Shown: positions 17,721 to 31,981 of the stretch, one piece after another
How the letters are laid out: every line of letters begins with the position of its first letter
Position numbering within the stretch: the first letter of the stretch is position 1
From: an archaeon GW2011_AR10
Lineage (GTDB): Archaea > Iainarchaeota > Iainarchaeia > Iainarchaeales > GW2011-AR10
Assembly (NCBI GenBank): GCA_000830275.1
Contig: CP010424.1
Location: 960,001 to 992,000 of the forward strand
Direction of reading: 5' to 3'
Length of the DNA: 32,000 nt
Program-made: the position numbers and the translations under genes
The notes under the pieces: model-generated
Told to the model about the DNA's origin: nothing
Seen by the model: only the letters and a program-made list of their open reading frames with translations
Databases searched by the model: none

Positions 17721-18578
17721 ATGGATAAAGTAACTGGCGCCAGGCCGGCATTGAACCCTGCTGTGGAAAAGCTGAAGCAAGAACTGCTTATTGCAGGCTA
17801 CTCTGCCAAAACAATTAAAATGTATGCCTTTTATGCCCAGAGCTTTTTGGATTTTGCCAATAAACCAGCTGGAGAAATAACTCGGGAAGACATTGTGGGT
17901 TACCTGGTGAAAATGAAGCAAGGAAGGAACGTTTCTAACGCCACTCTTTCATTGATTCATTCTTCACTAAAATTCCTGTTCAACAACTATTTGCATAAAA
18001 AAATTGTTGACGACATCAAGGTCGCAAAAAAAGCAAAGAAGCTGCCAGTAATACTGTCAAAAGATGAGGTGAAATCGCTGATTAGAGCGGTTAGGCCGGG
18101 AAGAAACCGCTTAATAGTTGAGTTCCTTTACTCAAGCGGTTGCAGGGTAAGCGAAGCCGTAAAACTGAAAACAGAGCACATTAACTTAAAGGAAGGAACA
18201 GGAAGAGTTGCTGGGGGCAAAGGAAACAAGGACCGCATGATTATTCTCTCAAAAGAATGGATTAAGGATATTAACAAATACTTGAAAAAAAAGAGAGTTC
18301 AAAGCCAGTTTGTATTCTCAAAGAAAAATGGGAAACCACTCTCAACCGATACTGTTCAAAGAATAATTAGGGCTGCAACACAAAAAGCAGGAATTGGCAA
18401 GCAGGTTACGCCCCACTCACTGAGGCACGCTTATGCAACACATTTGCTTGAGGCTGGAGAAAACATTCGAAAAATCCAAGAATTGCTGGGCCACAGCAGC
18501 CTTAGCACAACCCAAATCTACACAAAAGTCTCAACAGAGGAACTAAAAAAAGTGGTTTCCCCGCTGGACAAGCTATAA
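17721..18578 (+). CDS. xerA: tyrosine recombinase, XerA/XerCD-like
   Basis: An N-terminal SAM-like core-binding domain plus a catalytic domain: SGCRVSEAVKL (Arg I), HSLRHAYATHLL (HxxR), LLGHSSLSTTQIYTKV (catalytic Tyr). Confidence 0.85.
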   Translation: MDKVTGARPALNPAVEKLKQELLIAGYSAKTIKMYAFYAQSFLDFANKPAGEITREDIVGYLVKMKQGRNVSNATLSLIHSSLKFLFNNYLHKKIVDDIKVAKKAKKLPVILSKDEVKSLIRAVRPGRNRLIVEFLYSSGCRVSEAVKLKTEHINLKEGTGRVAGGKGNKDRMIILSKEWIKDINKYLKKKRVQSQFVFSKKNGKPLSTDTVQRIIRAATQKAGIGKQVTPHSLRHAYATHLLEAGENIRKIQELLGHSSLSTTQIYTKVSTEELKKVVSPLDKL

Positions 18579-25492: not shown

Positions 25493-25566
25493 GGGCCCGT
25501 AGCTCAGCCTGGTAGAGCAGCGGCCTTTTAAGCCGCGTGCCGAGGGTTCGAATCCCTCCGGGCTCG
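25493..25566 (+). tRNA. tRNA-Lys (UUU), intronless
   Basis: GGGCCCG-TA-GCTC-AGCCTGGTA-GAGC-A-GCGGC-CTTTTAA-GCCGC-GTGCC-GAGGG-TTCGAAT-CCCTC-CGGGCTC-G. All four stems pair, with one G:U in the acceptor. Confidence 0.9.
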
Positions 25567-29733: not shown

Positions 29734-29874
29734 TACAACTTCTTCTTTTCAGATATTTAAATAGTTTATTGGTTTTTTTTTAAACAATTATTTAAAAAAC
29801 TATAATTTTTAATTGTTTTTGTTTAATATTTTATTTGGTTTTTGTGTTTTTTTTGGCATTTGGCGGGATTTTTA

Positions 29875-30318
29875 ATGGAGCTTGACAAAACAGATTTAGC
29901 TATCCTCCGTGTTCTTGATGGGAATGCAAGGCTTTCTTTCAGAAAAGTTGCAGCCAAAACAGGTGTTTCAGTTGCAACTGTAATGAACCGTGTCCGCGAA
30001 CTGGAAAATAACAAGGTGATTAAGGCTTATTCTGTGGAACTGGATTACGAGAATATGGGCTATGAGTTACAAGCCATAACTTCAATTATTGTTTCTAAAG
30101 GGAAACTAAATCAGGTTGAAAACAAAATAGCTGTGCACCCGAACGTTACAGCGGTTTACGATATTACGGGCCACTTTGATGTTTTAGTTATTTCGAGGTT
30201 TAAGACAAGGAGAGGCCTTGACGAGTTCCTGAAAAAAATCCAGACATACGAGTTCGTGGAAAAGACTGAAACTGACATAATTTTGAACACCATTAAGCGG
30301 GCTCCGTTAAAGGTTTGA
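29875..30318 (+). CDS. lrp: Lrp/AsnC-family transcriptional regulator
   Basis: HTH SFRKVAAKTGVSVATVMNRVRELE plus a C-terminal RAM domain. Trimmed to the ATG at 29875 (MELDKTDLAILR). Divergent from amt-glnA. Confidence 0.85.
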   Translation: MELDKTDLAILRVLDGNARLSFRKVAAKTGVSVATVMNRVRELENNKVIKAYSVELDYENMGYELQAITSIIVSKGKLNQVENKIAVHPNVTAVYDITGHFDVLVISRFKTRRGLDEFLKKIQTYEFVEKTETDIILNTIKRAPLKV

Positions 30319-31001
30319 CCTGCACCGGAAATGAGGCGCTTCGAAAAGCAGTTAATAGTGAAATAGTTTATTCTGTAATGTATTCTCCTTCTGAACTAGA
30401 ACTGGTTGGCGCTATTATTGGAGATGGGCACATTCATGCCAAACCACCTAAATATTATTTTGGTTTAACTGGAAATAAGGTGACTGACAGGGAATACTTT
30501 GCAAAGCTCTCAGCTTTGATTAGTAGTGTTTGGAATAAAAATGCAAGAGTATTTGAGAGCAGTGGTGGTTTAAGAATAAGAGTTTATTCTAAAAAGATAG
30601 TTCATAAACTCATTAATGATTTTAGCATCCCCTTTAATGCTGGAAAGTGTTATTCAGTCAAAATTCCCGGCGTGTTTCTCAAAGACTATTCCAAGTCAAA
30701 GCACATTATTCGCGGCATAGCGGATACTGATGGCTCCGTGTTTGTTTCTGACAAGCCCGGCGCCATGGATTACCCTTCTTTGGAAATAACCACTGTAAGC
30801 AAAGAGTTGGCGGAGAATATTTGGGAAATTTTAATTAAAAATGGTTTTAGGGTGGCTAGAATAAGGAAATCAAGGTCTCGCCTGAGTAAATCCGATGCTT
30901 ATAAGGTTTGTTTGTATGGAAAAGCAAATTTGAAGAAGTGGATTGAGGAAATAGGTTTTTCAAATCCCCATAAATACCTAAAAGCGGTTTCATTTCTTTA
31001 A
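30315..31001 (+). CDS. free-standing double-motif LAGLIDADG homing-endonuclease-like protein
   Basis: Two LAGLIDADG motifs: LVGAIIGDGHI and IIRGIADTDGSV. The TTG start overlaps the lrp stop (TTGA). An alternative start is ATG at 30378. Confidence 0.75.
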   Translation: MTCTGNEALRKAVNSEIVYSVMYSPSELELVGAIIGDGHIHAKPPKYYFGLTGNKVTDREYFAKLSALISSVWNKNARVFESSGGLRIRVYSKKIVHKLINDFSIPFNAGKCYSVKIPGVFLKDYSKSKHIIRGIADTDGSVFVSDKPGAMDYPSLEITTVSKELAENIWEILIKNGFRVARIRKSRSRLSKSDAYKVCLYGKANLKKWIEEIGFSNPHKYLKAVSFL

Positions 31002-31044: not shown

Positions 31045-31212
31045 GGGAAGGTAGCTCAGCCTGGGAGAGCACATGACCGGCACAAGCTTGCCTGTTAGTG
31101 ACTTGTTTTGCCAGTGTGTAGCTGAAGATGGGGCAACATTGTTTTGTTGTTTTAATCTTCGTTGCTCTCAGCGGTGACCATGGTGTCGCGGGTTCAAATC
31201 CCGCTCTTCCCA
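31045..31212 (+). tRNA. tRNA-Phe (GAA) with two introns (30/31 and 37/38)
   Basis: Exon 1 31045-31075 (positions 1-30), intron 31076-31120, exon 2 31121-31127 (GCTGAAG, positions 31-37), intron 31128-31176, exon 3 31177-31212. The spliced product is 74 nt: GGGAAGG-TA-GCTC-AGCCTGGGA-GAGC-A-CATGG-CTGAAGA-CCATG-GTGTC-GCGGG-TTCAAAT-CCCGC-TCTTCCC-A. BHB details are given in the findings. Confidence 0.75.
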
Positions 31213-31231: not shown

Positions 31232-31797
31232 TTACTTGGAGGGAACTTTTCCGCGGAGCTTGTTTGAAAAGAATGCTTTGCTGTATTTCCAGTAAGCTTT
31301 GGCTTTATTTTTTTTCCAGAGTTCGTAGAATTTCCTGTACTCGTCGTATACTTCCTGAGTTGTTGGGGGAAATTTTTTTAGTGTGTAATGAATTCCAATA
31401 AGACCGGGCCCTAACTTATCATATATTCCTTTAATGTCTTTTGGCAGGGCATCATATTCTTCTCTTGCCAAAGGCCTAATTCCCACTAAAGCAAGTCGCC
31501 TTTCAAAAAAGAAATAATTTGGGGGAGTTCATCAATGTGTGTTCTCCGTAAAAACCTTGCAAACTTATTAATCACCCTTGGATCTTGGCTCTTGATTTCA
31601 AATTTCTGGGTTATTGAAGTAGTTGTTGGGTATAAGTTCCCTCTTTCTTCCGCAGCTCCTCTTTTCATTGTCCTAATTTTGGTAATTGTAATAGGTAAAC
31701 CGCCTTTTCCAACTCTTTCACCGCGATGAAAAAGAAATGTGTCCTTGCGCTTCGGCATTAAGAAAGAACAGGGTTTTGAAGAATATAATGATTGCAC
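31232..31797 (-). pseudogene. sugar transferase (polyprenyl-phosphate glycosyl-1-phosphate transferase family), N-terminally truncated and frameshifted
   Basis: FHRGERVGKGGLPITITKIRTM...DPRVINKFARFLRRTHIDELPQIISFLKGDLL-stop, then in another frame VGIRPLAREEY... The frame break falls inside the conserved GD(M)SLVGPRP motif at about 31486. The usual N-terminal TM segment is absent. Confidence 0.65.
31527..31630. repeat. 104-bp direct repeat, copy 2 (inside the sugar-transferase remnant)
   Basis: See 26192-26295. Confidence 0.85.
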
Positions 31798-31813: not shown

Positions 31814-31823
31814 TTTTTAAATA
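31814..31823 (+). promoter_or_regulatory. TATA-like box (TTTTTAAATA) upstream of tRNA-Lys(CUU)
   Basis: Centred about 33 nt upstream of 31851. Confidence 0.4.
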
Positions 31824-31850: not shown

Positions 31851-31981
31851 GGGCCCATAGCTCAGTCTGGTAGAGCACTTGATTTTTCGAAGCTTTTTAG
31901 GCTTGGAAGAGGTGCGGCTCTTAAACGCTTTCCAGAAGTAGGGTGACCAAGGTGTCGAGGGTTCGAATCCCTCTGGGCTCG
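31851..31981 (+). tRNA. tRNA-Lys (CUU) with two introns (30/31 and 37/38)
   Basis: Exon 1 31851-31881, intron 31882-31916, exon 2 31917-31923 (GCTCTTA), intron 31924-31945, exon 3 31946-31981. The spliced product is 74 nt with anticodon arm CTTGG-CTCTTAA-CCAAG. The acceptor, D and T arms are nearly identical to tRNA-Lys(UUU) at 25493. Confidence 0.75.

Follow-up and report, generated by a model that had tools for sequence, protein, structure and literature searches.

The window analysed here is a stretch of 32,000 nt of contig CP010424.1 from archaeon GW2011_AR10, and all coordinates refer to positions within it unless another locus is named. Its segment 31851-31981 is very probably a functional tRNA-Lys(CUU) gene of the Diapherotrites/Iainarchaeum lineage (DPANN archaea), interrupted by two archaeal-type introns of the protein-spliced kind. 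The Rfam tRNA model matches this segment over model positions 1-71 with a score of 50.3 bits (gathering threshold 29), and the alignment leaves 60 nt unmodelled, all of them inside the anticodon arm. The gene is composed of two flanking exons, a micro-exon carrying the anticodon, and two introns at positions 30/31 and 37/38 (Table 1). Removal of the inserts restores a standard cloverleaf with its anticodon arm, giving a spliced tRNA of 74 nt with the anticodon CUU. The initial annotation had proposed this double intron, the 7-nt micro-exon and the Lys(CUU) identity, and all of its coordinates and pairs were verified; cutting at these borders also reproduces the perfect spliced arm CTTGG-CTCTTAA-CCAAG that it had described. 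The third exon ends with the discriminator G73, and the CCA end is not encoded. The tRNA body had been called nearly identical to that of the uninterrupted isoacceptor tRNA-Lys(UUU); in our comparison, the spliced tRNA-Lys(CUU) differs at 13 of 74 positions, nine of which fall within the anticodon arm.

A TATA-box-like element precedes the gene. TTTAAA-type boxes are located at an equal distance (~28-37 nt) upstream of tRNA-Lys(UUU), of a tRNA-Phe gene in the same window, and of the Lys(CUU) orthologues in the loci L117, L104, L067, L084 and L011. The gene was missed by ARAGORN, which found tRNA-Lys(UUU) alone in the window and is therefore unsuitable for double-intron tRNA genes. In the Rfam scan of the window, tRNA was the sole family above threshold. 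In two other loci (L102 and L108), the micro-exon sequence CTCTTAA runs on contiguously into the 3' exon. Other three-piece assemblies of an anticodon arm, with anticodons TGG, TGT, GCG and others, were rejected, as they have no bulge-helix-bulge (BHB) motif at the junctions and no support from relatives. A split tRNA-Lys(CUU) was ruled out as well, the gene being contiguous over 131 nt with a single upstream TATA-like box, and so was a self-splicing group I intron, which is a ribozyme of more than ~200 nt compared to inserts of 35 and 22 nt.

Table 1. Positions of the tRNA genes, their parts and the associated features in the window and in related loci.
Feature	Position	Strand	Remarks
TATA-box-like element TTTTTAAATA	31814-31823	+	28-37 nt 5' of the mature end; putative function, from position and conservation
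Exon 1 of tRNA-Lys(CUU), tRNA 1-30	31851-31881	+	acceptor 5' strand, D arm, first 4 nt of anticodon stem; Rfam alignment, dissection
Intron 1, position 30/31	31882-31916	+	35 nt; long hairpin whose base is the BHB1 inner helix; pairs, homologues, covariation
Micro-exon GCTCTTA (RNA GCUCUUA), tRNA 31-37	31917-31923	+	7 nt; anticodon CTT at 31920-31922; dissection, pairs
Intron 2, canonical position 37/38	31924-31945	+	22 nt; pairs, register test, strain variant
Exon 3, tRNA 38-73	31946-31981	+	A38, CCAAG, variable loop, T arm, acceptor 3' strand, G73; Rfam alignment, dissection
BHB1 5' strands	31872-31879	+	outer AGAG 31872-75 (tRNA 21-24), central CACT 31876-79 (tRNA 25-28); bulge 31880-82
BHB1 3' strands	31905-31914	+	inner GGAAGA 31905-10, central GGTG 31911-14; bulge 31915-17
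tRNA-Lys(UUU), uninterrupted isoacceptor	25493-25566	+	for comparison; ARAGORN; Rfam 69.2 bits
tRNA-Phe(GAA), double intron	31045-31212	+	Rfam 40.6 bits
Two-motif LAGLIDADG_3 endonuclease open reading frame	30315-31001	+	ends 44 nt before tRNA-Phe; 0.85 kb upstream of tRNA-Lys(CUU)
Tyrosine recombinase XerA	17721-18578	+	archaeal XerA equivalog, 266 bits (cutoff 220)
LAGLIDADG gene beside tRNA-Lys(CUU)	L084 3316-4098	-	
LAGLIDADG gene beside tRNA-Lys(CUU)	L104 824-1504	+	
LAGLIDADG gene beside tRNA-Lys(CUU)	L107 4075-4824	+	
LAGLIDADG gene beside tRNA-Lys(CUU)	L123 3623-4357	+	
RNase P RNA	L133 1920-2359		
RNase P RNA	L138 1824-2147		
RNase P RNA	L146 1518-1875		
RNase P RNA	L150 2465-2795		
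RNase P RNA	L157 3167-3492		
RNase P RNA	L160 717-1087		

Splice-site structures of the two introns

The junction at position 30/31 can adopt a BHB motif (BHB1) with a 3-nt bulge, a 4-bp central helix and a second 3-nt bulge, flanked on both sides by further helices (outer 4 bp, inner 6 bp). It comprises the outer helix AGAG/CTCT, the central helix CACT/GGTG, the inner helix TTTTTC/GGAAGA and a distal hairpin AAGC/GCTT, in which 18 of 18 pairs are standard; the two bulges are TG-A and CG-G, the hyphen marking the splice site. The junction at 37/38 forms a second motif (BHB2) with the central helix CTCT/AGGG (31918-21 with 31940-43) and the bulges TA-A and TG-A, and its outer helix is the anticodon stem itself. 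The helices and bulges that had been claimed for both introns were thus all recovered, every proposed pair being standard. In 200,000 trials with shuffled intron 1 sequences, the central helix together with at least six inner pairs appeared in 0.015% (~1.5e-4), and the central helix of BHB2 was recovered in 2.6% of shuffled intron 2 sequences.

Further support for BHB1 came from a survey of one genome per species for genes that resemble tRNA-Lys(CUU) and have an insertion between positions 26 and 32; it gave more than 119 matches. The 5-bp anticodon stem under the 30/31 model is fitted by 82 sequences (at least 81 loci plus the window), 75 of which are unique. The register test took the four intron bases before the last two and scored them for full complementarity to tRNA 25-28. 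Among the matches listed, 70 of the 75 unique archaeal sequences pair in register and 0-1 in shifted registers, compared to a mean of 31.8 and a maximum of 45 with shuffled partners. The central helix occurs in covarying versions, namely CACT/GGTG, CGGC/GCCG, CAAC/GTTG, CGGA/TCCG and CGCG/CGTG. Covariation was calculated on a splice-site-anchored, ungapped alignment of 72 sequences among the matches listed (A2), which replaced a structurally inconsistent whole-intron alignment made with MAFFT (A1). In this alignment, the central helix of BHB1 is 97.9% paired, three of its four pairs have changed on both sides, and the covariation reaches 0.423, versus 0.147 when shuffled (0 of 500 shuffles reach 0.423) and at most 0.083 in slid registers. 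The central helix of BHB2 is fully in register in 14 of 25 double-intron relatives among the matches listed, versus 0-2 out of register.

These structures point to a stepwise splicing pathway. The gene would be transcribed from its own TATA-box promoter, and the precursor would first take a non-cloverleaf fold that forms a strict BHB1, in which the pairing partners of the 3' D-stem strand and of positions 26-28 are the 3' end of intron 1 and the anticodon-loop bases 32-35. In the established route of archaeal tRNA splicing, EndA cleaves the precursor and an RtcB-type ligase joins the pieces; here, the cuts of EndA would follow the second base in each bulge (30/31), and such a ligase would seal the ends. 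Once intron 1 is removed, the anticodon stem and the cloverleaf could form, the canonical 37/38 BHB would be cut and ligated, and CCA would be added. That the gene is transcribed, which enzymes act on its product and in which order the two cuts are made are all inferred. BHB1 and BHB2 cannot coexist because the bases 31918-21 are common to both, and BHB1 also takes up bases of the D stem and the anticodon stem. In the modelled full precursor, the BHB1 conformation has an energy of -40.9 kcal/mol versus -30.8 kcal/mol for the cloverleaf with BHB2, and this ~10 kcal/mol greater stability suggests that intron 1 may be excised first, after which the 37/38 BHB forms. Closely spaced archaeal tRNA introns that need iterative or stepwise removal have been described in the tRNAscan-SE 2.0 paper (PMC8450103).

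The tRNA-Phe(GAA) gene of the window has the same layout, with a 45-nt intron at 30/31 (31076-31120), a micro-exon GCTGAAG (31121-27) and a 49-nt intron at 37/38 (31128-76). Its BHB1 has a perfect central helix CACA/TGTG and an outer helix of 2 bp only, and the central helix of its BHB2 has three of four pairs. The initial annotation had presented tRNA-Lys(CUU) as a second case beside tRNA-Phe, and indeed the insertion points are equal and the intron sequences unrelated. L126 holds an orthologue of tRNA-Phe whose introns are homologous, and in L117 a double-intron tRNA-Phe stands beside Lys(CUU). The gap between these two genes is just 64 nt in L117. In the window, a 103-aa fragment on the minus strand (31486-31797) separates them; it partially matches the Bac_transf sugar-transferase profile (profile positions 32-102 of 179) and appears to be what remains of a gene inserted between the two.

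Several points weigh against the proposed gene structure and splicing order. The unconstrained minimum-free-energy fold of the precursor is a third structure (-46.5 kcal/mol), and the energy argument for the order is therefore weak. Within the window, genes for EndA and for an RtcB-type ligase were not found. BHB2 is a borderline strict or relaxed motif, because its inner helix has just 2 bp (31925-26 paired to 31938-39), or 3 bp in another register, and is altered in the strain L004. The outer helix of BHB1 is uninformative for covariation, since the search pattern fixed its bases. The mature sequence is blind to the choice between 29/30 and 30/31, as G30 and G31 are both G, and BHB geometry alone picks 30/31. 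We had also considered that the complementarity of the D-stem AGAG to the Lys(CUU) loop CUCU explains the choice of 30/31; this idea loses weight through tRNA-Phe, which has its intron at the same position and just two outer pairs.

Inheritance and variation of the introns

Homologues of intron 1 are recognisable in six relatives, L117 (Iainarchaeum), L104, L067, L084, L126 and L144; they start with ATTTTTC, end with GAGGTG(Y)(R) and vary at the hairpin tip. Intron 2 is partly homologous in the same relatives, with the common stretch TTTCCAGA. Synteny with the window is kept in these relatives, and their SerRS proteins are 51-68% identical. Because recognisably homologous introns are found in the same gene of relatives, the 30/31 intron is, on this comparison, vertically inherited in the Iainarchaeum lineage. 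The initial annotation had left the presence of homologous introns in related genomes to be checked, and finding them in six relatives favours vertical inheritance. It had also singled out an anticodon-arm-like hairpin in intron 1, AAGC-TTTTTAG-GCTT. This hairpin exists, and it is the variable tip of the intron helix, because the relatives (L117, L104, L067 and L084) do not conserve it.

The insertion at 30/31 of tRNA-Lys(CUU) is present in at least 81 archaeal species genomes of Thermoproteota, DPANN and Asgard. By record label, these loci comprise 53 Thermoproteota (in the broad sense), 15 DPANN, 3 Asgard, 4 Euryarchaeota-labelled and 6 unclassified, and at least 25 of the 81 have a second intron at 37/38. 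The Lys(CUU) 30/31 intron belongs to a position class that spans many archaeal phyla. An unlikely alternative to vertical inheritance is that the 30/31 intron was gained recently and independently by transposition, as in Thermoproteales, the shared position being a structurally favoured site. It could account for the intron turnover among close relatives, for the introns of different phyla that cannot be aligned, and for the unrelated Lys and Phe introns of the window; intron transposition itself is documented (Fujishima 2010, as cited in PMC4033280). However, intron 1 is homologous in the same gene across relatives, as vertical descent predicts, and no copy of a Lys intron was found in the other tRNAs of the window. 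Of the position-specific gain or retention of introns put forward earlier, retention stands, given the homologous introns in relatives and the recurrence of the position across phyla, and recent gain is unlikely.

Intron turnover is evident from L129, in which the Lys(CUU) gene is intron-less, and from L011, in which Lys(UUU) has the 30/31 plus 37/38 layout. In the close relatives L128 (244-403, 1152-1277 and 2688-2807) and L135 (342-459), the introns sit at ~24/25 in the D stem, not at 30/31. The Lys(UUU), Lys(CUU) and Phe genes of L128 all carry such ~24/25 introns, and the intron ends of its two Lys genes resemble each other closely (...TTTTCGCCAAAA-GCAC, the hyphen at the border). Either a spread of introns among tRNA genes or gene conversion between them would fit this similarity.

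Contigs of several groundwater metagenomes and the metagenome-assembled genome GCA_013332025.1 match the window at 99.9-100% identity. One of the proteins that the window encodes has identical counterparts in archaeon GW2011_AR10 and in a metagenome-assembled genome labelled Candidatus Diapherotrites. The exons of tRNA-Lys(CUU) are identical in four independent assemblies, and intron 2 varies. In the strain L004, which is 99.87% identical over 15 kb, the gene differs by four substitutions (A>T, T>C, G>A and G>A), all located in 31937-31945 (L004 14941-14949); the exons and intron 1 are unchanged, and one of the substitutions turns a G-U pair of BHB2 into A-U. Intron 2 was thereby shown to change faster than the exons. 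Such a cluster of four substitutions in 9 nt, at the 3' end of intron 2, greatly exceeds the background density and suggests either relaxed constraint or a small conversion tract.

These data also bear on whether the locus is a decaying tRNA pseudogene, with its anticodon arm disrupted by insertions and its BHBs coincidental. In favour of this reading, ARAGORN misses the gene, and its Rfam score is lower (50.3 bits) than that of the uninterrupted Lys(UUU) (69.2 bits). By contrast, decay hardly fits with exons that stay identical in four independent assemblies as intron 2 varies, with a layout and homologous introns kept in relatives as distant as 51-68% SerRS identity, with a conserved promoter box, with the strong covariation of the BHBs, or with the ~1.5e-4 chance of BHB1. 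We therefore regard a pseudogene as extremely improbable.

LAGLIDADG genes adjoining tRNA genes

Upstream of tRNA-Phe lies an open reading frame for a two-motif LAGLIDADG_3 endonuclease. Its homologues were collected from 80 metagenome loci (L126-L205) at 27-68% identity, and L117, L011 and L067 also bear the family. A tRNA starts between -60 and +130 nt from the LAGLIDADG stop codon in 44 of 65 evaluable reading frames, and in 35 of the 41 with at least 44% identity, compared to 15 of 109 for other reading frames of the same loci under the same distance criterion (odds ratio 13, p = 4e-13). Rfam confirmed the adjacent tRNA in 14 of 20 sampled loci. The partner tRNA may lie on either strand, yet always at the 3' end of the LAGLIDADG reading frame, with a gap of 27-64 nt when co-directional; when convergent, the two are separated by 0-3 or 21-22 nt, or overlap by 19 nt. 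A rough neighbour-joining tree indicated that the orientation of the partner flips between close relatives. The outer flanks of these loci are highly variable, and both catalytic aspartates are invariant.

The partner differs among branches of the family. The closer homologues adjoin tRNA-Phe(GAA) when the partner is uninterrupted, which is the case for 15 genes, and Phe with the 30/31 intron, with or without the 37/38 intron, when it is interrupted. Members of ~29-36% identity (L190, L193, L194, L196 and L205) overlap the first 10 nt, that is the 5' end, of tRNA-Cys(GCA). LAGLIDADG_3 members of ~24-26% identity are found immediately upstream of double-intron tRNA-Lys(CUU) genes and are oriented into them (Table 1). 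In public records the protein of the window is annotated only as hypothetical or as having a homing-endonuclease domain, a sequence search of the PDB gave no meaningful match to it, and our literature search found no description of a coupling between LAGLIDADG and tRNA genes in archaea. Judged from these gene neighbourhoods, the coupling in DPANN archaea appears tight but unexplained.

Two further observations concern the same loci. An AsnC/Lrp-type regulator gene (29842-30318) overlaps the start of the LAGLIDADG reading frame by 4 nt, and this overlap suggests that the two may be co-transcribed in this genome; the gene upstream of the LAGLIDADG reading frame is a different one in relatives. 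Six of the 20 sampled loci hold an archaeal RNase P RNA gene ~0.1-1.4 kb from the LAGLIDADG/tRNA-Phe pair, and none is present in the window.

The neighbourhood raises the question of whether the introns are kept as DNA protection, breaking up the site at which an integrase, or a site-specific nuclease such as LAGLIDADG, would act. The initial annotation had offered protection of the anticodon region from integrases or nucleases as one possible rationale, and for viral integration this idea has been published as the Randau-Soll hypothesis, as cited in PMC4090602. In its favour, the genes of a LAGLIDADG family whose catalytic aspartates are invariant lie physically coupled to tRNA genes in these lineages, and distant members sit directly upstream of double-intron tRNA-Lys(CUU) in L084, L104, L107 and L123. 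However, the family of the window pairs with tRNA-Phe, not with Lys, and a simple reading in which introns give immunity is disfavoured because 15 partner tRNAs are uninterrupted. The Lys(CUU) 30/31 intron is moreover common in Desulfurococcales, Sulfolobales and other groups (loci surveyed for introns only). As to an integrase, the window holds a single recombinase, of the tyrosine type (17721-18578), whose profile match identifies it as the chromosome-resolution enzyme XerA and not a mobile-element integrase; a link of an integrase to tRNA-Lys(CUU) was rejected for this reason. Altogether, protection is a very doubtful explanation for the introns.

XerA homologues are also found 1.5-2.5 kb from tRNA-Lys(CUU) in L063, L100 and L107 (Nanoarchaeota/Woesearchaeota), and another within L024. 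The other neighbours in the window are archaeal housekeeping genes, including those for SerRS, TFE, Trm56, glutamine synthetase and Amt in addition to XerA, and the G+C content is ~41%.

A more speculative reading, to which we give little credence, is that the free-standing LAGLIDADG subfamilies, each locked on Phe, Cys or Lys(CUU), might be homing elements targeted to tRNA genes, and that the 30/31 and 37/38 introns might persist or spread by interrupting the target in the anticodon arm. Free-standing homing-endonuclease genes occur in phage tRNA clusters, T4 SegB being an example, and encode GIY-YIG or HNH enzymes. Both systems have a non-intronic endonuclease gene adjoining tRNA genes; however, compared to T4 SegB, the genes described here are of the LAGLIDADG_3 type, reside in cellular DPANN genomes with one tRNA species per subfamily, and are known from sequence alone.

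Relation to known archaeal tRNA introns

The double-intron architecture had been considered remarkable, an assessment that we do not share. Position 30/31 is already documented for tRNA-Lys(CUU) (PMC3218864, PMC4090602), and multiple introns removed stepwise have been described (PMC8450103). The double-intron tRNA-Lys(CUU) represents no new kind of gene, but a regular case of an archaeal class that is well documented. In our literature search, no paper on tRNA introns of AR10 was found.

A close counterpart is the tRNA-Lys(CUU) that is split in Nanoarchaeum equitans and in Staphylothermus marinus and Staphylothermus hellenicus, whose split site is 30/31 with a helix-flanked (hBHBh') junction (PMC3218864, PMC4090602). 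They share with the present gene the tRNA, the 30/31 junction, the canonical hBHBh' motif and cleavage by the same endonuclease, which here would be EndA. In the split genes, separate transcription units are joined in trans, whereas the present gene is contiguous, with a 35-nt cis-intron and a second intron at 37/38. Crenarchaeal tRNA-Lys(CUU) genes are likewise similar in having an intron outside 37/38 of the same tRNA with a BHB at the splice site. For the non-canonical intron of Aeropyrum pernix, splicing was shown at the RNA level, and spliced and unspliced forms were cloned (PMC4307357). In our genome survey, the Lys(CUU) genes of Desulfurococcales and Sulfolobales have the same register as here, with CGGC/GCCG. 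Compared to the window, the crenarchaeal introns are mostly single, 15-25 nt long and unrelated in sequence; the precursor of A. pernix lacks an outer helix, whereas the outer helix here has 4 bp.

Multiple-intron tRNA genes were reportedly described by Sugahara in 2007 and 2008 for Thermoproteales and Thaumarchaeota, and tRNAscan-SE 2.0 is able to handle them. These tRNAs resemble the present one in carrying two or three BHB introns per gene, some of which require sequential removal (PMC8450103, PMC4033280), and in Thermoproteales multiple-intron tRNAs go together with intron transposition (PMC4033280). By contrast, the gene analysed here belongs to a DPANN archaeon (Diapherotrites) of ~41% G+C from non-thermophilic groundwater, and no spread intron copies were found among the tRNAs of the window. 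Within DPANN, endonucleases bearing a specificity loop and heavily disrupted tRNA genes have been reported (PMC3239211, PMC5829648). ARMAN-2 and other DPANN archaea, with broad-specificity endonucleases of the epsilon-2 type or of the alpha-4 type carrying an L3 loop, are alike in lineage and in their frequent non-canonical or multiple tRNA introns; the published introns of ARMAN-2 differ in position, lying at 53/54 and 59/60.

The gene has a practical consequence for annotation, as standard tRNA finders run in bacterial mode overlook it; in DPANN annotations made in this way, tRNA-Lys(CUU) and tRNA-Phe will seem to be absent, unless the search is an archaeal one that allows for introns. In Thermoproteota, DPANN and Asgard, our survey found the 30/31 intron in many more tRNA-Lys(CUU) genes than the few published cases, and this wide distribution bears on the old question of whether intron-containing genes gave rise to the split tRNA-Lys genes. 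Of greater interest as a lead are the endonuclease genes tightly coupled to specific tRNA genes of DPANN archaea. Should these genes prove, against the odds, to be homing elements targeted to tRNA genes, and the introns to persist or spread by interrupting their target, this would be the first case in which a nuclease drives the movement or the retention of archaeal tRNA introns.

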